Assembly (NCBI GenBank): GCA_964406005.1
Contig: CAYOPZ010000005.1
Span: 5,370 to 69,369 of the forward strand
Source: an uncultured Bacteroidaceae bacterium
GTDB taxonomy: Bacteria > Bacteroidota > Bacteroidia > Bacteroidales > SM23-62
DNA: 64,000 bases
Direction: 5' to 3'
How positions within the stretch are numbered: position 1 is the stretch's first letter; each line of letters begins with the position of its first letter. Made by a program: the position numbers and the translations under genes. Below, one piece after another: positions 766 to 25,400 of this stretch. The notes beneath the pieces were generated by a model. It saw only the letters and a program-made list of their open reading frames with translations. It did not search any database and was not told the DNA's origin.

Positions 766-780
766 ACCCGGGGAATAAGA

Positions 781-2328: not shown

Positions 2329-2344
2329 ATAAAATCAATATAGA

Positions 2345-2980: not shown

Positions 2981-2992
2981 AAATGCCAAACC

Positions 2993-4723: not shown

Positions 4724-7050
4724 CCAAAAAAGAGGAAGAATTTAAAAAGCGGTTGCTGGAGACTTTCAGGATTGAAGCCGGTGACCACCTGAAAGCGATA
4801 TCATCCGGCCTGATAAAACTGGAAAAAACAGGCAATCAGGATGAGCGGAGAAAATCAACCGAGAATATCTACAGGGAGGCTCACAGTCTGAAAGGAGCAT
4901 CACGTTCTGTAAACATACGCAGTTTTGAATCCATCTGTAATACTTTGGAAAATGTTCTCGGAAGATGGAAGCGTGAAGAGATAACCCCGTCCCGGGATAT
5001 GTTCGATAAAATGCATACCCTGGTCGATTTTATGTCGGAAAAACTCGGTGATCCCCGGCCCGGGGAGATCGTCCTCGAAAATCATGTTTCAGAGATTCTT
5101 TCTCAATCGTATGAAACGGATTCCGGAACCGAAGATATTTCAGGGCCCGGTTCAGGCAAAGGACTTACTGAAAAGGAGAGTAGTGACCAGTCCGGTAAAA
5201 AAGTTAATCAGCCTTCTGAAAAGGAACAACCCCCTGCAGGTGAAGGAAGGATACTGGAAGGAACCGTAAGGATTTCCAGGATGAAACTCGATTCCCTGAT
5301 GATGCAGACCGAAGAGATGCTGTCTGTTAAACTTAAACTGTATCAGCGATTTACCGAACTTCAGGATCTCGGATCCGTTCTCAGTCAATTGAAAAAGGAG
5401 ATCATGGAAATGATCCGGGAAAATCCTAAGGTATTCCAAATCCAGGTGAATGAGACTAAGAACCCGGATCGTGAAAATAATAAAATCAATCCGGGACAAT
5501 CGGAAAAATATGATAAGAGTTCTGAACTCGTCGAATTAATGGAAGCCAAACTCTCGGTTCTTGTTAAATCAGCCGGAGAAGATCACAGGATGGCAGGAAG
5601 GATGATCGATAATATGCTGGAGGAAATGAGGAATATCTTAATGCTCCCCATTTCTTCAATCCTGGAATTGTTCCCGGGACTGGTCCGCAATCTCTCCAGG
5701 GAGCAGGGCAAGAATGTGGAACTGGAAATGCAGGGAGCTGAGAATGAAGTCGACAGACGGGTCCTTGAAGAGATAAAAGATCCGCTTATCCACCTGGTAC
5801 GGAATTGTATCGATCACGGAATTGAAAAACCCGAAGAAAGAATCAAGAATGGTAAACCTTCATCCGGAAAAATTACCATCAAGGTATCACAATTGCCGGG
5901 GAACAAGGTTGAAATTCTTGTATCCGACGACGGGGAAGGGATTGATCTGGCCGGTATTAAAAAGGCGGCAATCAAAAATGAATTGGTTTCAGAGAAGGAT
6001 GATTTAACGGACGATAAACTGGAAACTCTTGTTTATCATTCCGGGATTACAACCAGTCCCATCCTTACGGATCTTTCCGGCAGGGGACTCGGACTCGCCA
6101 TTGTCAAGGAGAAAGTCGAATCGCTCGGAGGAACCGTCTCCGTCAGGTCCCAACACCTTAAAGGAACAGCCTTTACCATGCAGATACCGCTTACACTTGC
6201 AACATACAGGGGCATCTTCATCGAGGTGGACGGTGCCGTGTTTGTCGTACCCGCTGCCAATGTCGAACGGATCCTGAGAATTAACAGGAGTGACATAAAA
6301 ATGGTCGAAAACAGGGAGACCGTTTCAATGAACGGCAATACCCTTTCCTATGTAAATCTCGGTGACATTCTTGAAACAGCGGGAAGTAACCGTGAAGAAC
6401 CGGAGGTAAAGGACAAAACACCTAACCGGGACGTTCAGAACATACTCATTATGGGAGCAGGAAACAACAGGATCGCTTTTGGTATTGACAGGATTATCAA
6501 TGAGCAGGAAATCCTTGTTAAACATCTTTCAAAACCGCTGGCCCGGGTCAGGAATACAGGTGGTGTGACCATCCTGGGCTCAGGAAGGGTCGTTCCGATC
6601 CTGAACATTTCAGACATTATGAAATCAGCAGTCACCGGGCCTTCTGTAAGTACCGGATCCGCTTCTGAAAAGAAAGCGGAAGAAAAGCAAAGATCCGCCC
6701 TGGTTGCAGAAGATTCCATCACATCCAGGATGCTCCTCAGGGATATCCTCGAATCGGCCGGATTCTTTGTCAAAACAGCCGTTGACGGTGCCGAGGCACT
6801 GTCGCTCCTGCGTGAAGGCGAATTCGATATCCTTGTGTCAGATATCGATATGCCCAGGATGAACGGCTTCGAGCTTACTTTAAAAGTGCGTGCCGATAAA
6901 AAGCTCGGTGAATTGCCGGTCGTCCTTGTAACTGCCCTGAAATCACGCGAAGACCGTGAACACGGAATGGAGGTCGGAGCAAATGCCTATATCGAAAAAG
7001 GCAGTTTTGATCCGCAGCAGCTCCTGGAAGTCATAAACAGGCTCGTGTAA
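4720..7050 (+). CDS. cheA: CheA-type histidine kinase fused to a C-terminal receiver (WspE-like CheA::REC)
   Basis: 776 aa. Domains: HPt (YREAHSLKGASRS), HATPase (IHLVRNCIDHGIE, SDDGEGID, GRGLGLAIV), CheW-like P5 (FIEVDGAVFVVPAANVERIL) and REC (LVAEDSITSR, ILVSDIDMPRMNG). The ATGA start overlaps the MCP stop. Confidence 0.92.
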   Translation: MTKKEEEFKKRLLETFRIEAGDHLKAISSGLIKLEKTGNQDERRKSTENIYREAHSLKGASRSVNIRSFESICNTLENVLGRWKREEITPSRDMFDKMHTLVDFMSEKLGDPRPGEIVLENHVSEILSQSYETDSGTEDISGPGSGKGLTEKESSDQSGKKVNQPSEKEQPPAGEGRILEGTVRISRMKLDSLMMQTEEMLSVKLKLYQRFTELQDLGSVLSQLKKEIMEMIRENPKVFQIQVNETKNPDRENNKINPGQSEKYDKSSELVELMEAKLSVLVKSAGEDHRMAGRMIDNMLEEMRNILMLPISSILELFPGLVRNLSREQGKNVELEMQGAENEVDRRVLEEIKDPLIHLVRNCIDHGIEKPEERIKNGKPSSGKITIKVSQLPGNKVEILVSDDGEGIDLAGIKKAAIKNELVSEKDDLTDDKLETLVYHSGITTSPILTDLSGRGLGLAIVKEKVESLGGTVSVRSQHLKGTAFTMQIPLTLATYRGIFIEVDGAVFVVPAANVERILRINRSDIKMVENRETVSMNGNTLSYVNLGDILETAGSNREEPEVKDKTPNRDVQNILIMGAGNNRIAFGIDRIINEQEILVKHLSKPLARVRNTGGVTILGSGRVVPILNISDIMKSAVTGPSVSTGSASEKKAEEKQRSALVAEDSITSRMLLRDILESAGFFVKTAVDGAEALSLLREGEFDILVSDIDMPRMNGFELTLKVRADKKLGELPVVLVTALKSREDREHGMEVGANAYIEKGSFDPQQLLEVINRLV

Positions 7051-7092
7051 AGGATATTTTGATACAACCCCGGAAAATCAATAAAAACGGCA

Positions 7093-8175
7093 ATGACCGA
7101 GTTTAAAAAAGTAAGAGTTCTCGTTGTCGACGATTCACCGTCGGTTCTCGACCTGTTGACCTACATTCTGAATTCCGACCCCGGAATAGAAGTGATCGGG
7201 ACAGCCCTGACCGGCAAAAGAGCGTTGAAATTTCTTGAGACAACAGCTCCCGACGTTATTACGATGGATATGGAAATGCCTGAGATGGACGGACTGAAAA
7301 CCACGCGCATCATTATGGAAACCAATCCTGTTCCGATTATCATCGTATCGGCTTCCTGGTCCCCGTCAGAAGTTACCGATACCCTCAGGGCCATGGAAGC
7401 AGGTGCCGTTGCCATTCTGGAAAAGCCGCGGGGTATCGGCCATCCGGAGCACAACAGGATGGCCATCGAACTTGTCAATACAGTCAAAAACCTGTCACAG
7501 GTAAAACTCGTCAGGCGATGGCCAAAAATAAGGCAGATCAGGGAAAAGGCCCTTCCTGTGCTTCCTGACTTAGAAAAAGACAGGGAAGAGATCAGGATTG
7601 TCGCTATAGGTTCTTCAACCGGTGGTCCTGTTGCCCTGCAGGCCATACTGTCGGAACTTCCCGAAAATCTTCCGGTCCCCGTACTGATCGTGCAGCATAT
7701 TGCAGCGGGTTTCCTTAATGGATTGAAGGAATGGCTTAACAGATCGACAGGGAAAAAGGTCACTGTCGCATCAGACAGGGAGAAATTATTACCCGGACAT
7801 TATTACCTGGCGCCAAATAATTTCCAGATGGGAATTCAAAATTCCGGAATGATAAAACTGTCTGATTCCGATCCGTTGACAGTTCACTGCCCCTCTGTTT
7901 CATTTCTTTTCCGGTCTGTTGCCGAAACATACGGTAAACATGCAATCGGGGTTTTATTAACGGGCATGGGCAAAGACGGAGCCGGTGAACTCAGGATGAT
8001 GAGAAACAAGGGAGCCGTGACCATTGCACAGGATGAAGCTACCTCGGTCATCTGGGGAATGCCCGGGGAAGCTGTCAGGCTGGGGGGAGCAAAATATATT
8101 TTACCGCCTGTGGCAATTGCCCGTATAATAGCAAAACGGCTGAAAGGAAGTAACAAAGGTCCTGAGCACAGATAA
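7093..8175 (+). CDS. cheB: CheB-type protein-glutamate methylesterase (REC + esterase)
   Basis: 360 aa. REC motifs (VLVVDDSPSV, VITMDMEMPEMDG) plus the methylesterase triad contexts GSSTGGP, VQHI and GMGKDGA. Confidence 0.92.
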   Translation: MTEFKKVRVLVVDDSPSVLDLLTYILNSDPGIEVIGTALTGKRALKFLETTAPDVITMDMEMPEMDGLKTTRIIMETNPVPIIIVSASWSPSEVTDTLRAMEAGAVAILEKPRGIGHPEHNRMAIELVNTVKNLSQVKLVRRWPKIRQIREKALPVLPDLEKDREEIRIVAIGSSTGGPVALQAILSELPENLPVPVLIVQHIAAGFLNGLKEWLNRSTGKKVTVASDREKLLPGHYYLAPNNFQMGIQNSGMIKLSDSDPLTVHCPSVSFLFRSVAETYGKHAIGVLLTGMGKDGAGELRMMRNKGAVTIAQDEATSVIWGMPGEAVRLGGAKYILPPVAIARIIAKRLKGSNKGPEHR

Positions 8176-8187
8176 AAACGATGGTGC

Positions 8188-11100
8188 ATGGGAAAGAACA
8201 ACAACACATCCATTGTCATTGCCGAAGACAGCCATACTCAGGCCGAACAGCTCAGGTTCCTCCTCGAGGAACAGGGGTACACCGTTTTTTGCGGTAAAGA
8301 CGGATCGGAGGCACTGGATATGATAAAAATTCATCATCCGACCCTGGTCATCAGTGATATTCTTATGCCGGAACTGGATGGATACCAGTTATGCAGGAAA
8401 ATTAAAAAGGATCCCGTGCTGAAAAAAATACCGGTCGTACTCCTGACCGTATTATCACATCCAAGGGACATTATAAAGGGATTGGAATGCGGCGCAGACA
8501 ACTTCATAACAAAACCCTATAAAAACGAACATCTTTTATCATTGCTGCACAGGATCATTTCGAATATCCAGCTGAGGCAGGAAACAAAAACGGAGCCCGG
8601 GCTTAAAGTAAATTTTAATAAAAAGACTTACCATATTGATGCAGGCCGTGTACAGATACTCGATACGCTTTTATCCAGTATTGAACATTCAACCGGTGAA
8701 AATGAGAAGTTAAGGCAGTCAAACAAGCATCTGGAAAAAACACGGGAAGAACTGAAACGATCAAATCAGAACCTGGAGAAAGAGGTTGAAAAGCGAACGA
8801 AAAAGATCAAGCGGCTGAATTCACTGCTTACTGCGATAAGGAAAATAGATCAATTGATCGTTAAAGAAAAAAATCCGGGAATCCTGCTTCAAACCGCATG
8901 TGAGCAATTGGTGAGCATCAGGGATTATTATTATGCAGTGTATTTATACCTGGATAAGGACGGGAAAATATTATTTACGGGATATTCCGGTGTGGAAGAT
9001 CATTCTGAAAAATTCTCGGATTACCTTGATAAAGGTATGTTGCCTGCCTGCTGTGAAAAGGCAATGAACCGGGCCGGCGAGCTCACCGAAGGTAAAATAC
9101 AAGATCTGGTGGTCACCGAAGATCATAAGCGGGAATGCGGCGATTGTCCGTTGATTCCTGAAGAAAAAGGACTAAAATCAATAACCATCCCCCTGAAACA
9201 CAATGACCGGTACCTGGGTCTTCTCGTGATACTTGTACCGTTCCGGATATCTTCGATCATGGAAGAGATTGATCTTCTGGAAGGAGCAGCCAACGACCTG
9301 GCTTTTGCGCTTGCCGACATCGAACTCCAGGCTGAAAATAAGAAGGTCAACCGTGAACTGGTCAAAATGGCCCACGACCTGAACAAACGCGTAAAAGAAC
9401 TGAATTGTATTCACGGGATTGAAGAAGCAATGACACTACCCGGCATATCAATCAATGAGATTTTTAATGAGACCATACACCTGATACGGCAGACCTGGCA
9501 ATTCCCGGAATTAACGGCATGCAGGATTGAATACAATGGTGAGACTTTTCAATCGGAGAATTACAGGGAAACAGAACGGTCTTTGAAAACCGACCTGATT
9601 GTCCATGGTAAGAAGAAAGGTCTTCTTGAGGTCTGCTATATTGAAGATATCAATGATCATCCGGGGGATCCGTTTGTCGAAGAGGAGATGCACCTGCATA
9701 GAAATATCGGAAGGCAGCTCGAAAAATTCATTCAGAGAAAAGATACCGAAGAGAGATTAAAGGAACAACATAAACTGTTGTACCAACTCATCAATTCGTC
9801 ACCCGACCTGGTTTCCCTAAAGGACCGGAACGGACGGTATATAATGAATAATACAGCATTCAACAGGATCACAGGACTGAATGACCGGGAAACGACAACC
9901 GGCGAAACGGATTTTGACCTGTTCCCGGAAGAATATGCGGGCCGTTATCTTGAAGAAGACAGAAGGGTACTGGAGAAAGGGAAACCGGACTTAAACCGTG
10001 AAGAGATGATCCCTGACAGGAAAGGAAATGAACGATGGTTCCTGACATCCAGGATACCACTGAAGGATGAATCCGGAAAGATCAGCGGAATAATCAACGT
10101 GAGCCGTGATATTACCGAACGTAAGAAAAATCTTGAGGAATTGAAGCAGGCAAGAGAAAGAGCGGTGAAGGCAGATCAACTGAAAACAGCTTTCCTGATG
10201 AACATGTCCCACGAGGTCAGAACACCGATGAATGCAATAATCGGATTCGCAGACCTGCTTTTAAGTCCATCCGTGTTAAAACAGGATAAGGATTCGTTCC
10301 TGGAGATGATCAAGGAAAACAGCATGCGATTGCTCCGGCTTTTAAATGATATCCTGGATATTTCAAGGATCGAAACCGGGTCGGTTGAAATAATACCGAA
10401 GGCGTTCTCACTACGGAAGCTGGTTATGGACCTTCATAAGGATTTTAATGATCAGAAGATCAGGATGGGAAAAGAAAACGTGAAAATCAGCATTTCGGAA
10501 AAATGCAGTCATCATGATTATCGCATTATAACAGATCCTGAAAGGTTAAAACAAATTATCTCCAATCTGGTGGAAAATGCATTGAAGTTTACCGAATCCG
10601 GATTTATAGAAATGGGCTATGAAATGGTTCAATCGAAATCACCCGGTGAAAAACAATCGGATGCATTAAAACAAAAATTCCTGTGTTTCAGCATTAAGGA
10701 TACAGGGATCGGTATTGACAAGGACAGCCTTGATTTCATTTTTGACCGTTTCAGCAAGGTGGAGAGTAAAATGAAAATATATGACGGTACCGGCCTGGGG
10801 CTGGCGATTTCAAAGGACCTGGTGAAACTCCTTGGTGGTGAAATATGGGTGGAATCCGAACCCGGGAAAGGTTCTGAATTCTTTTTTACAATTCCATTCA
10901 AGGAAGCACGGGGTGAAAAAGAAATCATAACCAGATCAGGAACAGGCATGAGAAAGATCGACTGGAAAAGCAAACTGATCCTGGTTGCCGAGGATGAGGA
11001 AAGCAATTTTGCCCTTCTGAAATTCAACCTGCGCAGGACAGGTGCACAATTGCTCTGGGCCAGGAATGGAAATGAGGCTGTTGACGTCTGCCGTTCAAAT

Positions 11101-11334
11101 AAGGCAATAGACCTGGTTCTGATGGATATTAAAATGCCCGGATTGGATGGATTGCAGGCAGCCAGACTGATCAGGAAAAACAGGAAGGACCTTCCCGTCA
11201 TTGCAGTATCTGCCTTCTCAGCAGAAGAAGATATAAAATCATCAAGGGAGGCAGGCTGTGATGAATTTGTATCAAAACCGATCAATATGGAGGAACTTTA
11301 TAAGAAGATGAATTATTGTCTGGAAAGAAGTTGA
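8188..11334 (+). CDS. Hybrid sensor kinase: REC - conserved linker - coiled coil - Cys-bearing GAF-like - second sensor module - PAS - HisKA - HATPase - REC
   Basis: 1048 aa. N-terminal REC (IVIAEDSHTQAE, LVISDILMPELDG), H-box FLMNMSHEVRTPMNAIIGF, N/G boxes (NLVENALKFT, KDTGIGI, GTGLGLAIS) and C-terminal REC (ILVAEDEESN, LVLMDIKMPGLDG). Starts 12 bp after the cheB stop. Confidence 0.9.
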   Translation: MGKNNNTSIVIAEDSHTQAEQLRFLLEEQGYTVFCGKDGSEALDMIKIHHPTLVISDILMPELDGYQLCRKIKKDPVLKKIPVVLLTVLSHPRDIIKGLECGADNFITKPYKNEHLLSLLHRIISNIQLRQETKTEPGLKVNFNKKTYHIDAGRVQILDTLLSSIEHSTGENEKLRQSNKHLEKTREELKRSNQNLEKEVEKRTKKIKRLNSLLTAIRKIDQLIVKEKNPGILLQTACEQLVSIRDYYYAVYLYLDKDGKILFTGYSGVEDHSEKFSDYLDKGMLPACCEKAMNRAGELTEGKIQDLVVTEDHKRECGDCPLIPEEKGLKSITIPLKHNDRYLGLLVILVPFRISSIMEEIDLLEGAANDLAFALADIELQAENKKVNRELVKMAHDLNKRVKELNCIHGIEEAMTLPGISINEIFNETIHLIRQTWQFPELTACRIEYNGETFQSENYRETERSLKTDLIVHGKKKGLLEVCYIEDINDHPGDPFVEEEMHLHRNIGRQLEKFIQRKDTEERLKEQHKLLYQLINSSPDLVSLKDRNGRYIMNNTAFNRITGLNDRETTTGETDFDLFPEEYAGRYLEEDRRVLEKGKPDLNREEMIPDRKGNERWFLTSRIPLKDESGKISGIINVSRDITERKKNLEELKQARERAVKADQLKTAFLMNMSHEVRTPMNAIIGFADLLLSPSVLKQDKDSFLEMIKENSMRLLRLLNDILDISRIETGSVEIIPKAFSLRKLVMDLHKDFNDQKIRMGKENVKISISEKCSHHDYRIITDPERLKQIISNLVENALKFTESGFIEMGYEMVQSKSPGEKQSDALKQKFLCFSIKDTGIGIDKDSLDFIFDRFSKVESKMKIYDGTGLGLAISKDLVKLLGGEIWVESEPGKGSEFFFTIPFKEARGEKEIITRSGTGMRKIDWKSKLILVAEDEESNFALLKFNLRRTGAQLLWARNGNEAVDVCRSNKAIDLVLMDIKMPGLDGLQAARLIRKNRKDLPVIAVSAFSAEEDIKSSREAGCDEFVSKPINMEELYKKMNYCLERS

Positions 11335-11348
11335 CAGATTTTCACAGG

Positions 11349-13526
11349 ATGCAAAGGAACAAAGGAAATAAACTGATCGTGATTGCGGAAGACAGTCTTA
11401 CGCAGGCAGAAAAAATCAGGTATACTCTTGAGAACAAAGGGTTCAGGGTGGCTTGCGGAAAAAATGGCAGGGATGCCTTAAGGATTATTGAAGAAAAAGT
11501 TCCCGACCTGGTTATCTCGGATATAATCATGCCTGAAATGGATGGCTTTGAATTATGCAGGAGCATCAAAACAAAAAGCCGTCTGCAAGGAATTCCGGTT
11601 ATCCTTCTGACATCACTGGCACATACGGAAGACGTGCTGAAAGGTCTGGAGAGCGGTGCCGATAATTATATCATCAAGCCTTTCAGTGATGAACAACTTG
11701 TTACGCGCATAGAGACCATTCTTTCAGATGATGAAAATGCAGGAAAGGAGAAAAGGATACAGGAGCAAATCGACATTCTGTTCGAAGGGAAAAAGTACCT
11801 CCTGAATTCAACCAAAATCCAGATCCTCAACATGCTGCTTACGACCTACGAGGGAGCCGTACAAAAAACCAGGAAACTGGAGGAAACCCAGTCTGTACTG
11901 AATGAACTGCGAAACTCACTGGAAAGCAAAATCAGTGAAAAGACCAGGGATCTGCATCGGAAAATTCAGGAAAGGCAATCCATAGAATCTGCCATAAGGG
12001 AATCCGAGAAAAAGTATCGCAACCTTGTGGAGAATGCCATTACCGGAGTATTCAGCCTGACCCTGGAGGGGCAGATTGTGTTTGTCAACGAGGCAATGTT
12101 AAACCTCCTGGGTAAGGATCCGGGAACAAAGACGGAAAATCATTCCATACGATCATTCTTCAAACAAACTGCTGAATTTGAAAAATTCCTGGAGCTGATC
12201 AGGAAGCAGGGCCGGATTGTCGATTTTGAATCGGAGCTTGTGACAATAAAGGGTGAATCAAAAAGTGTGATCATCAATGCACGCCTGAAAGAAGACGGTA
12301 TTTCAGGCATTCTGCTGGACATTACGGAACGGAAAAAAATAATCGAACAGGAACAGAAATATCAGGCAGAATTAAAGACTGCAAAAGAGATGGCTGAGGA
12401 ATCGGATCGCCTTAAAACAGCATTTTTATCCAATATGTCCCACGAAATCAGGACTCCGCTCAATGCAATATCGGGATTTTCATGCCTGTTGTCCGATCCT
12501 CATCTGAGGAGAGAAAACAAAGAAGACTATATTGAACGCATTACCGATGGTTGCGATACCCTGCTAAACCTTGTAAACAACATCCTTGATCTGGCTAAAC
12601 TGGAAGCAGGAATAATAAAGCTTAACAAAAGAAAATGCAGGCTGAATAAACTGCTCGAGACGATTTATTCACTCCATTTAAGGTCAAGGGAGAAAATTGA
12701 AAGAAGCTCCCTTTCCTTCAAACTGTCGAAAGCAAATTCCGATGAAGACTTTACAATACTGGCAGATACCGACAGAATATTGCAGGTATTGTCAAATCTG
12801 CTTGATAATGCATTCAAATTTACCGAAAACGGATCGATTGATTTCGGATATGAAATTAAAGACGACCGGTTAATGTTTTTTGTCCGGGATACCGGACCGG
12901 GCATAAATGCCCAGCAGAAGAAAATAATTTTCGAACGTTTCAGAAAAGCAGAGGAAACAGAGACAAAACTGTACGGGGGAGCAGGACTGGGCCTGGCAAT
13001 ATGCAAAAAACTTGTTGAATTGATGGAAGGCGAAATAAGGGTGGAATCCGAACCCGGCCGGGGAACCTCATTCTCTTTCACAATACCCTTTATACCTGCA
13101 GCGGTTGAAAAAGAAACCGGAAAAAAGGAAGAAGCACCTGCTTCCAGACGATCCCTGAAAGGCAGGAAAGTACTTGTTGCTGAAGACAACCAGTTGAATT
13201 ATAATTTAATTGAAGCATTCCTGGCGGGGACCGACCTGGATGTTGTCTGGGTTAAGAACGGAAAGGAAGCCCTGGATTATTGCAAATCACCCGCTGATGC
13301 GGACATGATACTGATGGACCTGCGTATGCCGGTGATGGATGGATTTCAGGCGACAGAGCAAATAAGAAGCTTTAATGAGGACATCCCGGTTGTAGCCGTA
13401 ACTGCATATACCATCAGGGAAGAACAGGAAAAAGCGGAAAGCCTGGGATTTACGGATTACCTTACAAAACCGGTCAACCGGGAGATATTGCTGCAAACAA
13501 TACACAAATATATTTACAGTGGATAA
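11349..13526 (+). CDS. Hybrid sensor kinase: REC - conserved linker - PAS - HisKA - HATPase - REC (paralog 2)
   Basis: The ORF track starts at 11316. I prefer ATG 11349 (MQRNKGNKLIVIAEDS) because it matches the N-termini of the two paralogs. H-box FLSNMSHEIRTPLNAISGF, G boxes RDTGPGI and GAGLGLAIC, C-terminal REC (VLVAEDNQLN, MILMDLRMPVMDG). Confidence 0.9.
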   Translation: MQRNKGNKLIVIAEDSLTQAEKIRYTLENKGFRVACGKNGRDALRIIEEKVPDLVISDIIMPEMDGFELCRSIKTKSRLQGIPVILLTSLAHTEDVLKGLESGADNYIIKPFSDEQLVTRIETILSDDENAGKEKRIQEQIDILFEGKKYLLNSTKIQILNMLLTTYEGAVQKTRKLEETQSVLNELRNSLESKISEKTRDLHRKIQERQSIESAIRESEKKYRNLVENAITGVFSLTLEGQIVFVNEAMLNLLGKDPGTKTENHSIRSFFKQTAEFEKFLELIRKQGRIVDFESELVTIKGESKSVIINARLKEDGISGILLDITERKKIIEQEQKYQAELKTAKEMAEESDRLKTAFLSNMSHEIRTPLNAISGFSCLLSDPHLRRENKEDYIERITDGCDTLLNLVNNILDLAKLEAGIIKLNKRKCRLNKLLETIYSLHLRSREKIERSSLSFKLSKANSDEDFTILADTDRILQVLSNLLDNAFKFTENGSIDFGYEIKDDRLMFFVRDTGPGINAQQKKIIFERFRKAEETETKLYGGAGLGLAICKKLVELMEGEIRVESEPGRGTSFSFTIPFIPAAVEKETGKKEEAPASRRSLKGRKVLVAEDNQLNYNLIEAFLAGTDLDVVWVKNGKEALDYCKSPADADMILMDLRMPVMDGFQATEQIRSFNEDIPVVAVTAYTIREEQEKAESLGFTDYLTKPVNREILLQTIHKYIYSG

Positions 13527-14477
13527 ATGAAGAAACAGATCAGGAAAGAAAGCTCAGGCAACGGAAATTTCCGGAAGCTGTTGGACGAAAAACAAACGGA
13601 GATCAGGAAATTGACCGAAGAAATCAATCATCAGCAGGAAGCCATCGAATCACAGAAAGAGGTGATTGAAACACAACGTGATGTGGCCATTAAACAAAGG
13701 GATGAAATTATATTTCAGAAAAAGGAGATCACCTCCAGTATCAGATATGCGGAACGTATTCAGAAGGCATTGCTGCCGACAGATGAAGTATTTGCAGGGT
13801 CTTTTAAGGATCATTTCATTATGTACAGGCCAAGGGATATTGTCAGCGGGGATTTTTACTGGATAACAAATAAAGGCGGCAGGATCATTCTGGCCGCTGC
13901 AGATTGTACGGGACACGGAGTCCCGGGTGGCTTTATGAGTATCATGGGCATATCATTTTTAAATGAGATCGTTGAAAACCTTGGAATTATCCAACCCGGG
14001 GAAGTCCTGAATGAAATAAGAGACAAGGTGATCCACACATTCAGCCGGGCGGGGAAGAAAGCAGAAGCAATGGATGGTATGGATATCGCTGTTATCTCAT
14101 ATGAACCCCGGGATCAGGTCCTGCAGTATGCAGGTGCATTAAACCCGGTGTTTGTAATCAGGGACGGAGCCATTCATGAACTGACCGCAGACAGGATGCC
14201 TGTCGGATATTATTCCGGTACGGTCATACCGTTTGCCAATATTGAAATGGCGATACAGCCTGATGACTCGGTCTATTTGTTTTCAGACGGATATGTAGAC
14301 CAGTTCGGCTGGAGGACCGATACAAAATATAAAATGAAGAATTTTAGACGTCTGTTGCTGGATATTCAACAGGTACCAATGAGGGCGCAGAAGGTTCTGC
14401 TGGAAAATGAGCTCGATAACTGGAAGGGAGAAATGGAACAGCTGGATGACATCATGGTTATCGGGTTACAGATCTGA
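13527..14477 (+). CDS. PP2C/SpoIIE-family serine phosphatase with N-terminal coiled coil
   Basis: 316 aa. The ATG directly abuts the upstream TAA (13524-13526). A heptad-like N-terminus (LTEEINHQQEAIESQKEVIETQRDVAIKQRDEIIFQKKE) precedes RsbU/SpoIIE-type motifs (YAERIQKALLP, SGDFYW, ADCTGHGVPGGFMS, LFSDGYVDQ, DDIMVIGL). Confidence 0.88.
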   Translation: MKKQIRKESSGNGNFRKLLDEKQTEIRKLTEEINHQQEAIESQKEVIETQRDVAIKQRDEIIFQKKEITSSIRYAERIQKALLPTDEVFAGSFKDHFIMYRPRDIVSGDFYWITNKGGRIILAAADCTGHGVPGGFMSIMGISFLNEIVENLGIIQPGEVLNEIRDKVIHTFSRAGKKAEAMDGMDIAVISYEPRDQVLQYAGALNPVFVIRDGAIHELTADRMPVGYYSGTVIPFANIEMAIQPDDSVYLFSDGYVDQFGWRTDTKYKMKNFRRLLLDIQQVPMRAQKVLLENELDNWKGEMEQLDDIMVIGLQI

Positions 14478-14501
14478 ACTGCACCGGCCTTTTATAAAAG
14501 A

Positions 14502-16691
14502 ATGAAGGAAAAAACAGATAAGCGGATTGTAATTGCAGAAGACAGCCTTACCCAGGCAATGAAACTGAAAGGTATCCTTGAAAATGCCGGGTTTGCCGTT
14601 TACCACGGAGCCGATGGGAAACAGGCCTTGTCACTTGTTTATGAAATCACACCGGTGATCGTTATTTCAGATATAGTAATGCCGGAAATGGATGGATTCG
14701 AACTCTGCAGGAAGATCAAGGAAGATGAAAGCCTCTGCAGGATTCCTGTTATTCTTCTCACATCCCTGTCCGAACTGTCAGATGTCATCAAAGGGCTGGA
14801 ATGCGGTACGGATTCATATATTATGAAACCTTTTTCGGAACAATACCTTTTATCAAGGGTGAACCATGTACTGGAAAACAGCAGCCTGAAACCGGTAAAG
14901 AGTATCCCCAAAGGATTGAACATAAAATTCGGCGGACACGAATTCCAGATCCGTTCCGATCCGTTACAGATTTTAAACCTGTTGATCTCAACATATGATG
15001 CTGCTATTCAAAAGAATATTGAACTCGCTGAAAGAGAGAAAGAACTGATCTTGTTTAACCAGACCCTGCAGCAAAAGGTCGAGGAACGAAAACGCGAACT
15101 GACCGTTCAGCTGGAAGAGAAAATAAAAGCTGAGGAAATCCTTAAAAAATCGGAAGAGAAATACAGGGAACTGGTCGATACCGCACTGATCGGAATTTAT
15201 ATCTCAACCGTTGAAGGAAAATTATTATTTGCCAATGAAGCTTTCAGGGATATGCTTGATTACAGTTCATTTGATGAGTTATATTCAATGAATACAAGTG
15301 ATCTGTATAAAAATCCGGACAGCAGAAATCTGTTTATAGGCAGACTTCTTAAGGAAGGCAGGGTTCCCGACTTCGAGACAGAATTGATAACGAAGAATGG
15401 TTCAACAAAACATGTATTGCTGAATGCAACCCTGGAAGGGGATATCCTTTCAGGAATGATCCTGGATATCAGCGACAGGAAAGCAGCCGAACAGAGAATG
15501 AAGAACTATCAAAAGGAATTGCTGCAGGCAAAACAAAAGGCGGAACAATCAGAAAAACTTAAAACAGCATTTCTTGCAAATATGTCAAATGAGATCCTCA
15601 CTCCCATAAACTCGCTGGTAGGGTTTACAGACCTCCTGACCAGGCCTGGTCTCAGTGCTGAAAGTCAGGCAAAATATTCCGGGCAAATCAACGAAAGCGG
15701 GAATCAATTGCTGAACCTGATAGACAACATTATTGATATTGCAAAATTCGAATCCGGTGAGGTTACCATTAAACTGACAGATTGCAGGATCAATAATTTA
15801 TTGCTGGATCTCTATGCCTATTTTGAGAAGCGATTGCATGAAACCGGAAAGGACCAGGTGAGCCTTTTTCTCAAGAGGGCCAACAAGGATAATGATTTTA
15901 CCATATTAACCGAACCGTACAGGTTGAAGAAGGTACTGTCAAACCTGTTAAACAATGCAATCAAATTTACAGAGACCGGAGCGGTCGAATTTGGATATAA
16001 CATTGTACATGAAGAAGAAAATAATGACGGTTCCCTTATTCAGTTCTTCATCAAGGATACCGGCAGCGGCATTTCACAGGATAAACTTACCATGATTTTC
16101 GACCGTTTCCGCCGGAATGATGAAACCTATACCAAACTCTCCGAAGGAGCAGGATTAGGTCTCCCCGTTTCAAAAGCATACGTAGAACTTCTCGGCGGGA
16201 AGATATGGACGAAATCAGAGATTGATTCGGGCACGGAATTCTATTTCAATCTTCCCTATACACCGGTAAAGCCTGATGAAGGATTCGAAGCAGATGTTGA
16301 AGTGCCCGTCAGTACGCAAAACTGGGAAAACAAAAAAATCCTGATAGCAGAAGATATTGAAAGCAACTGGCGGTACCTGGAGGCCATACTGCAGAAGACA
16401 AAAGCCAGTCTGATCAGGGTGGAAAACGGCAGGCAGGCCATTGAAGCATTCAAGCAGCATCGTGATATCGACATAATCCTTATGGACCTCAGGATGCCGG
16501 TCATGTCGGGATATGATGCGACCATTGAAATAAAGAAAATGAACAGGGATATTCCCATAATTGTTCAGACAGCCTTTGCCCGGGACGAGGACAAGGAAAA
16601 AATCCTGGAGACCGGATGTGACAGCTACATTGTCAAACCGGTAAATAATGAGGTGCTCCTTGATCTCCTCGGCCGCTTTATAAAAAAATAG
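14502..16691 (+). CDS. Hybrid kinase-like protein REC - linker - PAS - degenerate HisKA (His->Asn) - HATPase - REC (paralog 3)
   Basis: 729 aa with the same architecture as 11349..13526. The H-box reads FLANMSNEILTPINSLVGF, with an AAT (Asn) codon at 15588-15590 where the paralogs have CAC (His). N/G boxes are intact (NLLNNAIKFT, KDTGSGI, GAGLGLPVS). C-terminal REC is present (ILIAEDIESN, IILMDLRMPVMSG). Confidence 0.9.
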   Translation: MKEKTDKRIVIAEDSLTQAMKLKGILENAGFAVYHGADGKQALSLVYEITPVIVISDIVMPEMDGFELCRKIKEDESLCRIPVILLTSLSELSDVIKGLECGTDSYIMKPFSEQYLLSRVNHVLENSSLKPVKSIPKGLNIKFGGHEFQIRSDPLQILNLLISTYDAAIQKNIELAEREKELILFNQTLQQKVEERKRELTVQLEEKIKAEEILKKSEEKYRELVDTALIGIYISTVEGKLLFANEAFRDMLDYSSFDELYSMNTSDLYKNPDSRNLFIGRLLKEGRVPDFETELITKNGSTKHVLLNATLEGDILSGMILDISDRKAAEQRMKNYQKELLQAKQKAEQSEKLKTAFLANMSNEILTPINSLVGFTDLLTRPGLSAESQAKYSGQINESGNQLLNLIDNIIDIAKFESGEVTIKLTDCRINNLLLDLYAYFEKRLHETGKDQVSLFLKRANKDNDFTILTEPYRLKKVLSNLLNNAIKFTETGAVEFGYNIVHEEENNDGSLIQFFIKDTGSGISQDKLTMIFDRFRRNDETYTKLSEGAGLGLPVSKAYVELLGGKIWTKSEIDSGTEFYFNLPYTPVKPDEGFEADVEVPVSTQNWENKKILIAEDIESNWRYLEAILQKTKASLIRVENGRQAIEAFKQHRDIDIILMDLRMPVMSGYDATIEIKKMNRDIPIIVQTAFARDEDKEKILETGCDSYIVKPVNNEVLLDLLGRFIKK

Positions 16692-16873
16692 ACAGGAGTT
16701 CAATACAAGCCGTTGCCGGTGGAAATCTGTTAAAAACGGTTCTACCTTCAGGATATTTTCCGGATTGATCTTAATCGCCCTTCCATTTAAACCATCCCGG
16801 GAAGGGGGAAATTACCAGTAAATTTATTAACTTCAGGTTTCAGTGGCTTTTGCCGGGTTAACTTTACATTGAC

Positions 16874-17500
16874 ATGTCGACAATTCTCATTATAGATGAT
16901 CACCCTGTTGTAAGAAGAGGATTGCGGGAAATACTTGAAGAATTGTCCGTTGATATCCGGATAATTGAAGCCGGTACGGCAATTGACGGGTTACGAATAA
17001 TCAGGGAATCGGATATTGATATTGTTTTACTGGATATTAATCTTCCCGGCAGAAGCGGTCTTGATATGCTGAAAGATATAAGAAAGATCAAGGCAGAAAC
17101 CAAGGTTCTGATAATCAGTATGTATCCGGTGGACCAATACGCAGTCCGTGCACTTAAATCCGGTGCAAAGGGATATGTTACCAAGGAAAGTGCACCCGAT
17201 GAATTGCTTGCTGCGGTCGACAGGATACTGAAGGGAGGAAGATACATTACACAATCCATAGCTGAGCATATAGTCGATAATCTTGAGAGTAAAGGCCCCC
17301 TGCACCGTTCTCTTTCAGACAGGGAGTTTGAGGTAATGATCCACCTGGCAAAAGGAAAAAGCATCAGGGTAATTGCCGAAACACTGGCATTGAGTGAAAA
17401 AACCGTCAGTACCTACCGCAAGAGAATTCTTGAGAAAATGCAAATGCATTCAAATGTTGAACTCGCCAGGTATGCCCTGCAGTATAAACTCATTGAATAG
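16874..17500 (+). CDS. NarL/FixJ(LuxR)-family response regulator
   Basis: 208 aa. REC (ILIIDDHPVVRRGL, IVLLDINLPGRSG) plus a LuxR-type HTH (LSDREFEVMIHLAKGKSIRVIAETLALSEKTVSTYRKRILEKM). Confidence 0.92.
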   Translation: MSTILIIDDHPVVRRGLREILEELSVDIRIIEAGTAIDGLRIIRESDIDIVLLDINLPGRSGLDMLKDIRKIKAETKVLIISMYPVDQYAVRALKSGAKGYVTKESAPDELLAAVDRILKGGRYITQSIAEHIVDNLESKGPLHRSLSDREFEVMIHLAKGKSIRVIAETLALSEKTVSTYRKRILEKMQMHSNVELARYALQYKLIE

Positions 17501-17540
17501 AAACTCAGGAATCTGGCAATTTTGTACGGCGGTGGTTAAA

Positions 17541-18335
17541 TCAGGAAGCAGACCTGATCCTTCTGGCTCTCCGGTGTATTTTCTTCCTTATCTTTTCATA
17601 TGAGGGAGGCGGACCGGTACGGAGTTCCCTGCCGTCGATGAATATCCCGTCGGATATCCCCCATTCCTCGAACACCTCCCTGTCAAGTGTATCGTACCGG
17701 GTAAGTTCAACCTTCCCTTCGAACTGCCCGGATGCTCTCAGGGTCCTTTCATAAGCCAGGTTCATTGCGGGACACCAGCCGTTCTTTAGCAAGGTGATGT
17801 CTACAACGCCTTTTCCCTTTGAAGGTTTCTTCTTTGGCTTGACAAACCGCGGAGGGACGGCATCCTCACGGAACGGCTTCCAGACCAGGCGCATCATCCC
17901 GTTTTTATCCACAACCCTGTAACCCTGTTTCCTGAACCAGGAGGCCTTCATCCAGACAGGTATGCCAAGGCCCCATGCAGCCAGCCCGGCGGCCCCCAGT
18001 TCCCTGCAATCCTCCTCGGCAGCCCTGAGAAGCGCCTTACCCATTCCCTTGTTCTGAAAATTGCCCCTGCCTTCCTTATGCCCGTGAACCCATATGCACA
18101 ATACCACGTACAGGTCGCTCCCCCGGAACATGGAGTGTTCGACGGGCAGGTATTGTATCATGCCTCCGATCACACCCTTCCCGTCCTGTGCGAATTTCAC
18201 CCTGACACCCTTGTCCTTCATGCGTTCATACCACTTTTGTTTGTGATCGCCGGCTTCTTTAATATCTTCAGACCAGTCCTCCAGGCAACAGAAATACAGT
18301 TTTTCGTTTTCAGGTGTGATGTCGATTATCTTCAT
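17541..18335 (-). CDS. GNAT-family N-acetyltransferase with YoaP-like C-terminal domain
   Basis: 264 aa. GNAT core (VHGHKEGRGNFQNKGMGKALLRAAEEDCRELG) plus a C-terminal segment resembling YoaP-like domains (ITLLKNGWCPAMNLAYE...GIFIDGRELRTGPP). Confidence 0.7.
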   Translation of the reverse strand: MKIIDITPENEKLYFCCLEDWSEDIKEAGDHKQKWYERMKDKGVRVKFAQDGKGVIGGMIQYLPVEHSMFRGSDLYVVLCIWVHGHKEGRGNFQNKGMGKALLRAAEEDCRELGAAGLAAWGLGIPVWMKASWFRKQGYRVVDKNGMMRLVWKPFREDAVPPRFVKPKKKPSKGKGVVDITLLKNGWCPAMNLAYERTLRASGQFEGKVELTRYDTLDREVFEEWGISDGIFIDGRELRTGPPPSYEKIRKKIHRRARRIRSAS

Positions 18336-23067: not shown

Positions 23068-23679
23068 ATGTGTGAAAAAAACAATCATGTAAATCTGGGA
23101 TTTACTTCAGAAAAGTTTCCGGCAGGTACTCACATGTGCTTAATCTATAACAATGAAGATGAAAGAGCAAAGATAATATCACAATTTCTTGAATCAGGTG
23201 TAAATAAAGAAGAAAAGGTATCATATTTTGCATATTCAATGAATAAGGCAGAAATGATCAATTGGCTTGATGAGCAAGGAGTTACAATATCGGAAACTGA
23301 TATTGATGTTTTAAATACAAGTGCCGTATACTGTCCTTCCGGAAAATTTGTTCCTGAGGTTATGCTTGATAATTTGAAAAGCTTTTATAATAGCTCAATC
23401 GAAAACGGTTACCGGGCTTCACGGGTGAGCGGTGAAATGATATGGGCCTTGGATAACATACCTGGCTCAAACAGACTAATGGAGTATGAAGCATTGGTGA
23501 ACCAGGTATTGGAAACCCATCCTGTAACGGCAATTTGCCAGTATGATGCAACTAAATTTGATGGAGCAACCATTCTGGATTGTTTGAAAGTGCATCCTTA
23601 TATGATCGTTGGGAGACAAATAGTGAAAAATCCTTATTTCCTGGATCCTCAGGAATACCTGGAAGAGATAAATTCATAG
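23068..23679 (+). CDS. MEDS-domain (DcmR-like sensory) protein
   Basis: 203 aa. The MEDS-like pattern is HMCLIYNNEDERAKIISQFLESG ... SGEMIWAL ... TAICQYD. Lies in an AT-rich segment. Confidence 0.65.
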   Translation: MCEKNNHVNLGFTSEKFPAGTHMCLIYNNEDERAKIISQFLESGVNKEEKVSYFAYSMNKAEMINWLDEQGVTISETDIDVLNTSAVYCPSGKFVPEVMLDNLKSFYNSSIENGYRASRVSGEMIWALDNIPGSNRLMEYEALVNQVLETHPVTAICQYDATKFDGATILDCLKVHPYMIVGRQIVKNPYFLDPQEYLEEINS

Positions 23680-23681
23680 AG

Positions 23682-25400
23682 ATGCCGGGTGATCAATCTC
23701 CGAAAGAACATATACGTGTTTTAAATCAGATAATTACGTTTGAGAGTGCAATTCATGCCATTCCGTTCGGCGAGAAACTGGTGGAATTCATGCTCCATGC
23801 CATTAAGACCATTACAAAAGTAAATCAATGCAACATATGCCTGCAATTATTGAAGAAACCTCTGGGTAATTTGAATGATGAAAAATGCATGAAATGCAAT
23901 TTTTTCAGCAATCCAGGTGAATATCCATGCCTTCTGGAGGGAAATAAAGACATAAAGATCATACCGGTAGCAACATTATTTAATCAATATGCATGTATTG
24001 TATTGAAATCAAGTTCTTTATTTCCAGAACCACTGTTGGCGGCACTACATAATTTTTCAAACACCTTCGCCATTACAATTGAAAATCATATTCAAAGAAG
24101 CAGATTAGAAAAAATGAATGAAGAACTTGTATTGCATCGTGACAATCTGGAAAAACAGGTAGACATAAGAGCAGGTGAATTAAAAAGACAAAATGAAGAA
24201 TATGCCGCACTTAATGAAGAATACAAAGCACAAAATGAGAAGTTGATATCTGCCAAGGAAAAAGCTGAAGAATCCGACAGGCTGAAATCTGCTTTTTTAA
24301 CAAACATGAGTCATGAAATACGTACTCCAATGAACGGGATACTTGGTTTTGCCAACTTGTTGAAAAAGCCGAAATTATCCGGTGAGCAACAGCAAATATA
24401 TATAAGCATGATCCTGCAAAGTGGTGACCGGATGCTGAACATTATAAACGATCTGGTTGATATATCGAAAGTTGAATCGGGACAGATGGAAACAGATGTT
24501 TCCGAAGTGAATATAATTGAGCAATTGAAATATGTTTATGACTTTTTTAAGTCTGAGGCAGAAAGCAAAGGTTTGCATCTTTCATGCTTTAATGAATTCA
24601 AACAAAAGAAAATTATAATAATAACAGATAAAGAAAAGCTATTAAGGATACTTACAAACCTGATAAAAAATGCCATTAAATTTACAAACAGAGGCAGCAT
24701 AGAATTTGGATTTAAACTCCATGAGAATTTTATTGAATTCATTGTAAAAGATACAGGTATTGGTATTAATAAGGGAGAACAAAAGCTGATATTTAATCGT
24801 TTTGTGCAGGCAAACTCTGAAATTTCAAAAAATTATGAAGGAGCTGGCCTGGGCTTGTCAATTACAAAAGCCTATATTGAAATGCTGGGAGGAGATATAA
24901 GGGTATATTCCAGGCCAAACAAAGGATCAACATTTTATTTTACCTTACCACTCCGGGAAGATATTAATCATGAGATAGAAAATGCTTTTCCTAAGGAAGA
25001 TATAAATACCTCGTTTGACTGGAAAGATAAACAAATACTTATTGTTGAAGATGATAATACAAGCAGGTTATTGTTTAAGGAAGCATTTAAAATAACAAAG
25101 GTAAAATTAATAGAAGCCCGTAATGGTATTGAAGCAATAGAGATTTGCAGGAGAATACCTCAACTGGATTTGGTACTGTTGGACATAAAAATGCCTGAAA
25201 TGAATGGTTACGAGGCAATAAGTGAAATACGGAAATTCAATAAAAAATTACCTATTATTGCCCAGACTGCATATGCTTTACAAGGGGAAAAAGAAAGATG
25301 CCTGAATGCCGGATGCGATGATTTTATATCAAAACCAATAAATAGGGAAGATTTAATATTAAAAGTCAATAAATACTTGGAATACAGGCATAGTCGATAG
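23682..25400 (+). CDS. Hybrid sensor kinase with Cys-motif GAF-like sensor, HisKA, HATPase, C-terminal REC
   Basis: The ORF track starts at 23580. I prefer ATG 23682, 2 nt after the MEDS stop. CxxC-X15-CxxC (CNIC...CMKC) is encoded at 23829-23897. H-box FLTNMSHEIRTPMNGILGF, G boxes KDTGIGI and GAGLGLSIT, REC (ILIVEDDNTSR, LVLLDIKMPEMNG). Confidence 0.88.
   Translation: MPGDQSPKEHIRVLNQIITFESAIHAIPFGEKLVEFMLHAIKTITKVNQCNICLQLLKKPLGNLNDEKCMKCNFFSNPGEYPCLLEGNKDIKIIPVATLFNQYACIVLKSSSLFPEPLLAALHNFSNTFAITIENHIQRSRLEKMNEELVLHRDNLEKQVDIRAGELKRQNEEYAALNEEYKAQNEKLISAKEKAEESDRLKSAFLTNMSHEIRTPMNGILGFANLLKKPKLSGEQQQIYISMILQSGDRMLNIINDLVDISKVESGQMETDVSEVNIIEQLKYVYDFFKSEAESKGLHLSCFNEFKQKKIIIITDKEKLLRILTNLIKNAIKFTNRGSIEFGFKLHENFIEFIVKDTGIGINKGEQKLIFNRFVQANSEISKNYEGAGLGLSITKAYIEMLGGDIRVYSRPNKGSTFYFTLPLREDINHEIENAFPKEDINTSFDWKDKQILIVEDDNTSRLLFKEAFKITKVKLIEARNGIEAIEICRRIPQLDLVLLDIKMPEMNGYEAISEIRKFNKKLPIIAQTAYALQGEKERCLNAGCDDFISKPINREDLILKVNKYLEYRHSR

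Follow-up and report, generated by a model that had tools for sequence, protein, structure and literature searches.

A hybrid histidine kinase homologue that lacks the phospho-accepting histidine may be a sequencing error, a dying gene or a protein with a task of its own. This question is raised by the third of three paralogous hybrid kinases (HK1, HK2 and HK3) encoded in a 64,000-nucleotide stretch, here called the window, of contig CAYOPZ010000005.1 from an uncultured Bacteroidaceae bacterium (GCA_964406005.1). HK3 is almost certainly an intact, selectively maintained member of a histidine-less REC-PAS-HisKA-HATPase_c-REC clade present in uncultured Bacteroidales and Rikenellaceae-like genomes. 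Its altered H-box is an old and strictly conserved family feature, not an error or the mark of a dying gene, and the protein has probably taken on a signalling role other than that of a kinase.

The H-Box of HK3 and Its Surrounding Motifs

HK3 is encoded on the forward strand by an open reading frame (ORF) with an uninterrupted translation of 729 amino acids (14502..16691), and a database protein (P0001) is 100% identical to it. The ORF, its translation and the Pfam matches define a REC1-coiled coil-PAS-HisKA-HATPase_c-REC2 architecture: Response_reg was found twice, together with PAS, HisKA (PF00512, 51.8 bits against a cutoff of 26.9, residues 354-419) and HATPase_c (PF02518, 88.6 bits). The H-box, as read from the sequence and its translation, is FLANMSNEILTP (15570..15605, forward strand). 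Residue 363, at the phospho-acceptor position, is Asn (AAT, 15588..15590), and residue 366, three positions further (H+3), is Leu (CTC, 15597..15599), which replaces an Arg that is otherwise invariant according to the alignment and the trees. A preliminary description of the window had noticed the missing His and the lost Arg that follows it, and set them against the two paralogs. Rereading confirmed its coordinates and residues for all three genes: the H-box is FLMNMSHEVRTP in HK1 (8188-11334), with CAC at 10210-10212, and FLSNMSHEIRTP in HK2 (ORF 11316-13526), with CAC at 12441-12443. At H+3, the paralogs have AGA or AGG (Arg), where HK3 has CTC.

The rest of the protein is that of a complete hybrid kinase. 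REC1 (residues 8-125, 14523..14876) retains E13-D14, D57 (14670-14672), T87 and K109, and REC2 (residues 613-722, 16338..16667) retains E617-D618, D662 (16485-16487), T690 and K712, as judged from Pfam and the alignment. Between them lie the PAS domain (residues 219-324, 15156..15473), the HisKA or DHp domain (residues 354-419, 15561..15758) and the HATPase_c or CA domain (15915..16262). In the latter, the N box NNAIKFT (N485, 15954-15956), the G1 box DTGSG (519-523, 16056-16070), the F box FDRF (533-536) and the G2 box GAGLGL (549-554, 16146-16163) can all be read, so that the N, G1 and G2 boxes and both receiver Asp residues, which the preliminary description had listed as kept, are indeed intact. 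Directly after Asn363, the stretch E364-I-L-T367 (15591..15602) is retained in the clade alignment and fits the E/DxxT/N motif needed for HisKA phosphatase activity (PMC3510030, PMC7005713).

No His is present among residues 335-425 of the window's HK3, and no column of the clade alignment, in the DHp domain or elsewhere, contains a substitute conserved His. Because there is no such substitute, HK3 is predicted to be unable to autophosphorylate or to relay phosphate through its DHp domain. This supports the earlier proposal that autophosphorylation at the canonical site is lost, as does the fixation of Asn in the orthologs. By homology, HK3 falls in the HisKA/HATPase_c hybrid kinase superfamily; it lacks the defining acceptor His and by kind is a pseudo-histidine kinase. 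The solved structures closest in sequence are those of ordinary kinases, namely 7z8n (E 3e-41), ShkA (6qrj) and HK853. No NCBIfam equivalog exists for HK3, the best matches (TorS, LuxQ and BarA) lying far below their cutoffs. Proteins of this type are annotated as "response regulator" or "PAS domain S-box protein".

Conservation of the Asn/Leu Motif among Orthologs

Relatives were searched for among 5.8 billion proteins, and the two groups described next are drawn from the 120 relatives listed. The closest group consists of 35 clusters at 90% identity (P0001-P0031, P0034, P0044, P0050 and P0053), 45-73% identical to HK3. Every member of this group reads N-[E/D]-I-L-x-P at the acceptor site, whereas the more distant relatives listed read H-E-[I/V]-R-T-P throughout, except for one H-E-I-Q-T-P. 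In a joint alignment, Asn363 and Leu366 occur together in 35/35 of the first group, and His and Arg in 42/42 of the second. Among the H-boxes of 256 retrieved relatives, the pair (His, Arg) was counted 225 times and (Asn, Leu) 35 times, all 35 in one clade, a pattern far beyond chance.

At the nucleotide level, the Asn codon is AAT in nine and AAC in four of the 13 loci for which DNA was available, and the Leu codon is CTC, CTT, CTG or CTA. The amino acids at positions 363 and 366 are thus held while the codons drift. In a scan of GTDB, the Asn form was encountered in at least seven species representatives, all of them metagenome-assembled genomes (MAGs) of uncultured Bacteroidota, Bacteroidales or Rikenellaceae. 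Moreover, two sequencing runs (Logan SRR14802572 and SRR14802573) gave the identical HK3 protein in independent assemblies. A base error at 15588-15590 is very unlikely because of these independent assemblies and of the second substitution in the same motif.

The other functional residues are kept almost as strictly across the clade. For the phosphatase motif, E/D364 and P368 are found in 35/35 members, and the +4 position is Thr in 31, Asn in one, Ser in one and Ala in two. The nucleotide-binding residues N485 and G523 are present in 35/35, D519 and G521 in 33/35; in the G2 box, which is mostly intact, G549 occurs in all aligned members and G551 in 33/35. A mild relaxation is visible at K488 (26/35) and at G553, which is Gly in 26 and Ser in eight. 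The residues for the phospho-chemistry of REC1 and REC2 are invariant wherever the residue is present. Fixed changes specific to the clade are few: K197, S308, E351, N363, L366, R459, E471 (Asp elsewhere), P555, E579 and, in REC2, S669 (Asp elsewhere).

Constraint on the Kinase Core

When the same genomes are compared, HK3 orthologs are closer to each other than HK2 orthologs in all genome pairs. Whole-protein identities of HK3 and HK2, respectively, are 52.0 vs 41.6, 53.9 vs 48.7 and 45.0 vs 42.4% in the first three pairs, and 49.0 vs 40.7, 47.5 vs 42.1 and 43.5 vs 37.7% in the other three. Averaged over six genomes, the N-terminal parts differ little, with 64% (HK3) and 60% (HK2) for REC1, 52 and 51% for the linker and 50 and 48% for PAS. 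The corresponding values are 66.7 and 58.8% for DHp, 61.3 and 48.8% for CA and 60.0 and 54.7% for REC2. The "dead" kinase core of HK3 is the best-conserved part of the protein, and these higher per-domain identities place it under tighter constraint than the live core of HK2.

The HK3 gene thus appears to be under purifying selection and not to be a decaying pseudogene. It encodes a functional, conserved protein, of which the DHp domain, the nucleotide pocket and both receivers matter. The preliminary description had raised the possibility of a designed pseudo-kinase as against a strain-specific mutation, and the survey supports it: the orthologs do not uniformly carry His, Asn is found in 35/35 close relatives with synonymous codon turnover, and the constraint exceeds that on HK2.

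Phylogeny and Outlying Orthologs

Neighbour-joining trees were computed on DHp-CA-REC2 or on linker-PAS-DHp-CA, with the two diagnostic columns (363 and 366) removed. In both trees, the Asn-bearing proteins form one clade apart from the HK2-like and HK1-like clades. Two divergent proteins, P0138 and P0122, came from a profile search against 1.84 billion cluster representatives, and the HK3 clade including both is recovered in 100% of 200 bootstrap replicates, again without the two diagnostic columns.

P0138 (728 residues) is basal in the clade. It has Asp at the acceptor site (FLANMSDRILQP), a pseudo-REC1 in which D57 is replaced by Ala, and Ser in place of the N-box Asn; it is a far more decayed pseudo-kinase than the HK3 of the window. 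P0122 (3306-5501 of locus L084, GCA_043797815.1) reads FLANMSHDILTP, with His (CAT) at the acceptor site and Leu at +3. It is the positional ortholog of HK3 in an HK2-PP2C-P0122 arrangement, its REC2 looks degenerate, and 100% of the 200 replicates join it to the Asn-bearing P0028 as a sister. Its His is most simply explained by a one-base reversion (AAT to CAT) or by an error in one MAG. From the bootstrap tree with these two proteins, it follows that Leu366 is a shared derived character of the whole clade, His- and Asp-bearing outliers included, and that the His to Asn change is ancient and single, or nearly so.

A further outlying locus, L005 (688-5366, GCA_003704715.1, RCNC010000891.1), keeps the HK2-PP2C-HK3 order, and its two kinases have lost complementary receivers. 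The HK2 homologue is also histidine-less, with Arg at the acceptor site (FLSNISREIKNP), and has no REC2. It keeps an intact CA domain, though neither kinase of the pair has a phosphorylatable His. The HK3 homologue (P0050) shows an internal deletion in REC1 and degenerate G1 (HTDRGI) and G2 (GAHMGF) boxes. This hints that the pair acts as one unit and can work without any phospho-His. In the related P0194, Ser is found at the acceptor site.

Some other kinases also depart from the canonical H-box. The HK2 ortholog at ~6017 of locus L023 (Bacteroidota MAG CSMAG_1309, JAUWBB010000197.1), 55% identical to the window's HK2, has the H-box FLSNMSLEIRTP, in which Leu takes the place of the His and the Arg is retained; little of the contig is left beyond this point, and this could be an error or a second independent loss. 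In a Colwellia MAG (L075, 9308-11251), a membrane-bound hybrid kinase that has no N-terminal receiver carries FLANMSNEIRTP, where Asn stands in for the His and the Arg remains. The same motif was seen, at the locus level only, in a Gemmatimonadota MAG (L080, ~3657). These last two are independent His to Asn cases outside the HK3 clade, and they were found only because the scan pattern contained NMSN.

Gene Neighborhood

The genes from 169 to 16691 all lie on the forward strand with very small gaps between them. According to Pfam, they encode a CheW (169-765), a CheR-TPR (781-2328), a second CheW (2345-2980), a methyl-accepting chemotaxis protein (MCP) with CHASE3-HAMP (2993-4723), a CheA-REC hybrid (Hpt-HATPase_c-CheW-REC, 4720-7050) and a CheB (7093-8175). 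They are followed by the His-bearing HK1, with an extra GAF region (REC-GAF-PAS-HK-REC, 8188..11334, translation and Pfam), and the His-bearing HK2 (REC-PAS-HisKA-HATPase_c-REC, 11349..13526, translation and Pfam), which is 43% identical to HK3. A PP2C/SpoIIE-family phosphatase (13527..14477, Pfam) separates HK2 from HK3. The mechanical ORF of HK2 begins at a TTG (11316) and overlaps the end of HK1 (11334); the true start is probably the ATG at 11349, because the gene was called with 725 residues on the identical Logan contig. Downstream of HK3, after a gap of 182 nt, a NarL/GacA-type response regulator (REC-GerE, 16874..17500, forward strand, Pfam) is a possible transcriptional output. A scan of 7000-18000 for promoters and terminators gave counts not above those of shuffled sequence, hence no evidence of separate transcription of HK3, and Rfam gave zero hits on the whole window.

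The cluster is Che-like and of the "alternative cellular function" type, without stand-alone CheY and with kinases that carry an N-terminal receiver, as HK1, HK2 and HK3 each start with REC. The signature of this receiver, IAEDSxTQA, is common to the three kinases and recurs N-terminally in kinases of many phyla (loci L019-L083), among them Proteobacteria, Acidobacteriota, Verrucomicrobiota, Planctomycetota and archaeal Methanosarcinales MAGs. A scan with two patterns, one of them this receiver signature, matched 598 stretches, of which 537 were confirmed relatives, mostly through the receiver pattern. REC-first sensor kinases may thus form a widespread class.

The order HK2(His)-PP2C-HK3, with orthologs 41-59% identical, recurs in L003, L004, L005, L006, L007, L008, L010, L011, L018 and L084, and partly in L009. 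Upstream of the trio lies either CheA-CheB-(HK1) or the full CheW-CheR-CheW-MCP-CheA-CheB array; Che genes lie upstream in L003, L004, L010, L018 and the contig of P0030. In two Rikenellaceae MAGs, a fragment of HK1 and a NarL-type regulator precede the trio, the regulator lying just upstream of HK2 and sharing 66-68% identity with that of the window. HK3 has a fixed place in an HK2(His)-PP2C-HK3(Asn) module that stands, in most genomes, behind CheW-CheR-CheW-MCP-CheA(REC)-CheB. The His of HK2 is kept in 9/10 HK2 orthologs that have a readable H-box and lie beside an HK3.

The PP2C has an N-terminal coiled coil of ~100 residues and no receiver domain. It sits between HK2 and HK3 in at least 10 genomes, 53-59% identical to the window copy, and its conservation, at 47-58% identity across the compared genomes, roughly matches or exceeds that of HK3. 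No STAS or SiaC-type substrate and no stand-alone Hpt were found when these were sought in the conserved module.

Elsewhere in the window, an ORF with a MEDS domain (23068-23679) overlaps by ~100 nt, in another frame, an ORF encoding HisKA-HATPase_c-REC (23580-25400) with the H-box FLTNMSHEIRTP at 24294. The overlap within 23068-25400 could result from an over-extended TTG start or from a frameshift splitting a MEDS-kinase fusion.

A Proposed Kinase-Dead Receiver Phosphatase or Phosphate Sink

For a protein that keeps everything but the acceptor His, the preliminary description had offered a trans-phosphorylating partner, a phosphate sink through the receivers, or a scaffold. A kinase-dead, phosphatase-competent role was absent from these options; it is given first place here, as a candidate only, because the E/DxxT/N motif and the nucleotide pocket are both kept. 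By analogy with characterized mutants, HK3 may tentatively be regarded as a receiver phosphatase or phosphate sink that is kinase-dead, depends on nucleotide and is regulated by PAS and REC1, the natural equivalent of the laboratory mutant NtrB H139N.

In such a scheme, the two catalytically complete receivers of HK3 would be phosphorylated from outside: REC1 probably by CheA, in the way that CheA3 of Rhodospirillum centenum phosphorylates REC1 of CheS3, and REC2 by the CheA Hpt domain or by the phosphorylated His of HK1 or HK2. The DHp domain with its retained E/DxxT/N, where the amide of the Asn could position a water molecule but could not accept phosphate, would dock with the nucleotide-loaded CA domain onto the phosphorylated receiver and dephosphorylate it. 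The outcome would be a PAS/REC1-regulated phosphate sink or reset branch, which would set how much of the phosphate from the Che-like pathway and from HK1 and HK2 reaches the output, possibly the NarL-type regulator, the PP2C branch or both.

Several precedents are in agreement with this proposal. NRII (NtrB) H139N, which has the same His to Asn change at a HisKA acceptor and an intact CA domain, is reported to act solely as a phosphatase (bioRxiv 10.1101/122606). CrdS H371A, which resembles HK3 in the loss of the acceptor, retains near-wild-type phosphatase activity provided Thr or Asn stands at +4: CrdA~P has a half-life of 2.6 min, against 0.7 min with the wild type and 53.5 min without CrdS, while the N375A exchange, from Asn to Ala at +4, abolishes the activity (47.6 min; PMC3510030). 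For HK853 and EnvZ, it is the Thr or Asn at +4 that activates the water, the His only helping the reaction along, and strong stimulation of the phosphatase comes from ADP in the CA domain (PMC7005713). Because of this stimulation, a phosphatase-only protein would be expected to keep its nucleotide pocket. NRII H139N and CrdS H371A are, however, engineered point mutants of single-output kinases, whereas the HK3 form is natural, ancient and fixed, has also lost the +3 Arg and carries receivers at both ends.

The input side of the scheme has its closest parallel in the Che3 system of R. centenum, likewise an alternative-function Che-like cluster with a CheA-REC hybrid and, within the cluster, a kinase with N-terminal REC (PMC3868531). 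There, CheA3 phosphorylates the N-terminal receiver of the REC-kinase CheS3 and thereby controls the kinase core (PMC3868531); a corresponding phosphotransfer from CheA to the N-terminal receiver of HK3 is inferred by analogy. The two systems differ in that CheS3 has its His and phosphorylates CheY3, whereas the window cluster has three REC-first kinases with an additional C-terminal receiver, one of them histidine-less, a PP2C and no stand-alone CheY.

A number of points weigh against a phosphatase. Ala at +4, which should abolish HisKA phosphatase activity, occurs in 2/35 orthologs (P0008 and P0030). The +1 E/D, invariant in HK3, is a kinase and not a phosphatase residue in CrdS (PMC3510030), and the dispensability of the His is not universal, the phosphatase activity of PleC requiring it, as cited in PMC3510030. 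The model accounts neither for the invariant change from Arg to Leu nor for the co-conserved PP2C, and the cluster contains no separate Hpt protein to charge REC2. Finally, the divergent HK3 of L005 has lost REC1 and the G1 and G2 motifs; there at least, it would have to work without nucleotide. An AlphaFold2 model of the HK3 monomer (19-sequence clade alignment; predicted local distance difference test, pLDDT, 79; predicted template modelling score, pTM, 0.37) shows the REC-coiled coil-PAS-DHp-CA-REC fold that was expected; the ATP lid and DHp are predicted with low confidence, as is usual, and the model does not discriminate between mechanisms.

Alternative Mechanisms

Instead of removing phosphate, HK3 might dimerise with HK2 (or HK1) through the DHp domain, and its intact CA domain would phosphorylate, in trans, the His of the partner. 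The output of HK2 would then be gated by what HK3 senses through PAS and REC1, in an asymmetric, half-of-sites kinase. This is a possibility of lower probability. The CA domain retains its nucleotide motifs and exceeds its HK2 counterpart in conservation (61 vs 49%), and HK2 and HK3 are always neighbors and share one architecture with 43% identity. HK2 retains its His almost throughout (the 9/10 given above), and the sole lineage in which it was lost, L005, is one in which HK3 has lost G1 and G2. Mixed dimers of NtrB H139N and G313A reportedly phosphorylate in trans, and CheA4 of Rhodobacter sphaeroides is said to phosphorylate CheA3. The Caulobacter protein CCNA_03265, a histidine-less hybrid kinase with a receiver Asp reported as kept, has been proposed to heterodimerise or to have its receiver phosphorylated in an Hpt-driven manner (PMC11481889).

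On the other hand, paralogous kinases usually evolve away from heterodimerisation, and the DHp domains of HK2 and HK3 are only 44% identical, with clade-specific changes. Complementary decay of the HK2 CA domain, which would be expected of an obligate trans-heterodimer, was rejected: HK2-type CA motifs are fully intact in the alignment. The strict joint retention of Asn, Leu, E/D364 and T367 is left unexplained by a trans-acting kinase. Furthermore, the HK2 homologue of L005 keeps its intact CA domain although the pair has no His anywhere, so that retention of a CA domain alone does not imply a His target.

CCNA_03265 and PsmA of Streptomyces resemble HK3 as hybrid kinase homologues without H-box His but with a receiver domain. 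In PsmA, the residue at the His position is variable (E, D, Q, V or Y), the ATP motifs have degenerated, a D/ExxT/N motif is missing and the protein can do without its receiver Asp (PMC12963549). HK3, on the contrary, has one invariant replacement and keeps everything else. RetS of Pseudomonas aeruginosa (PDB 6dk7/6dk8) is likewise a hybrid sensor kinase with two receivers; it is found among the PDB hits of HK3 (E 2e-23) and is not a close relative. RetS acts on GacS by heterodimerisation and phosphatase-like mechanisms, not by its own autophosphorylation. It differs from HK3 in that the His is kept, both receivers are C-terminal and the protein is membrane-bound with a periplasmic sensor.

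The next explanation, which is rather unlikely, is that of a sensor or scaffold like DivL. The dead DHp-CA core would bind a phosphorylated receiver, its own REC1 or REC2 or that of another protein, without altering it, and the resulting conformational change would be passed on to HK2, HK1 or the PP2C. DivL of Caulobacter crescentus (PDB 4q20) is indeed the nearest precedent in kind: a HisKA/HATPase_c protein with a conserved non-phosphorylatable residue (Tyr) at the His position, with several upstream PAS domains and a function within a multi-kinase network, it binds DivK~P and is devoid of both kinase and phosphatase activity (PMC4211667). Such a role would suit the DHp as the most conserved domain of HK3, the persistence of the module in L005, where neither kinase has a phosphorylatable His and the ATP motifs of HK3 are degenerate, and the basal P0138, which with its Asp at the His position, pseudo-REC1 and lost N box looks purely non-catalytic.

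The main clade, however, keeps ATP-binding motifs and receiver catalytic residues that would be superfluous for a pure binder. The likeness to DivL is also limited. DivL keeps the +3 Arg and needs it (R553A phenotype), the very residue lost in HK3; it binds nucleotide weakly and lacks phosphatase activity (PMC4211667), its Kd being ~57 uM where real kinases lie at 0.5-3 uM, whereas HK3 keeps the ATP and E/DxxT motifs. It has no receivers, no link to a Che cluster or PP2C, and an alphaproteobacterial CckA as partner, where HK3 has two complete receivers. DivL is found among the PDB sequence hits of HK3 (E 3e-23), but canonical kinases score far better. With its different architecture, replacement residue and taxon, HK3 is not an ortholog of DivL.

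That the core has become enzymatically new is improbable. It would be either an ATP-dependent Ser/Thr kinase opposed by the PP2C or a receiver phosphatase in which the invariant Asn itself positions the water, like the water-positioning amides, Asn and Gln, of CheX and CheZ. Either option, if true, would mean a new catalytic class derived from a histidine kinase inside a chemotaxis-like pathway.

The first of the two, in which HK3, with its GHKL ATP site intact though the His is gone, would phosphorylate a hydroxyl (or other) residue on itself or a partner and the PP2C would reverse this, seems very unlikely taken by itself. It draws on the conserved position of the PP2C between HK2 and HK3, on the best NCBIfam match of that PP2C, which is to the C-terminal phosphatase region of SiaA, a regulator of biofilms (1.2e-52, under the cutoff of the family), and on BCKDK as a weak PDB hit of HK3. 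The antagonist of SiaA is a protein kinase, and proteins of the histidine kinase fold that phosphorylate Ser or Thr do exist (mitochondrial BCKDK/PDK, the plant ethylene receptors of subfamily 2 and phytochromes). However, the conserved module lacks a gene for a STAS or SiaC-like substrate, HK2 adjoins HK3 without a PP2C on the P0030 contig, the His-keeping HK1 and HK2 are equally linked to the PP2C, and no clade-specific conserved Ser or Thr stands out near the active site, except S669 in REC2.

That the change is an artefact or a sign of decay, be it a miscalled base, a loss-of-function mutation private to one strain or an incipient pseudogene, can practically be dismissed: one A-for-C change would suffice for CAT to become AAT and the nested P0122 does read CAT, but the ortholog survey rejects it, with two H-box substitutions (His to Asn and Arg to Leu), the same protein from two independent runs, Asn in 35/35 orthologs with synonymous codon variation, a full-length ORF with its remaining motifs intact and a conservation exceeding that of the functional paralog.

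Implications for Pseudo-Histidine Kinases

Pseudo-histidine kinases are already an established concept. In the few that have been studied, such as DivL and PsmA, decay has affected the ATP site, and the residue that replaces the His is lineage-specific or variable. The HK3 family differs in its single invariant replacement, in the other catalytic elements that are kept and in a core that is under tighter constraint than that of the active paralog. A literature search of partial coverage, which is no proof of novelty, returned no paper on an Asn-type histidine-less kinase family or on the Bacteroidales HK2-PP2C-HK3 module. The hosts of the family are uncultured, and automatic pipelines would count HK3-type proteins as kinases, an annotation pitfall.

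The pattern is the one expected of a natural phosphatase-only or trans-acting kinase subunit, activities whose study has until now relied mainly on engineered mutants such as NtrB H139N. HK2-PP2C-HK3 thus offers a defined and cloneable three-gene module for the division of kinase and phosphatase functions among paralogs downstream of Che-like receptors.

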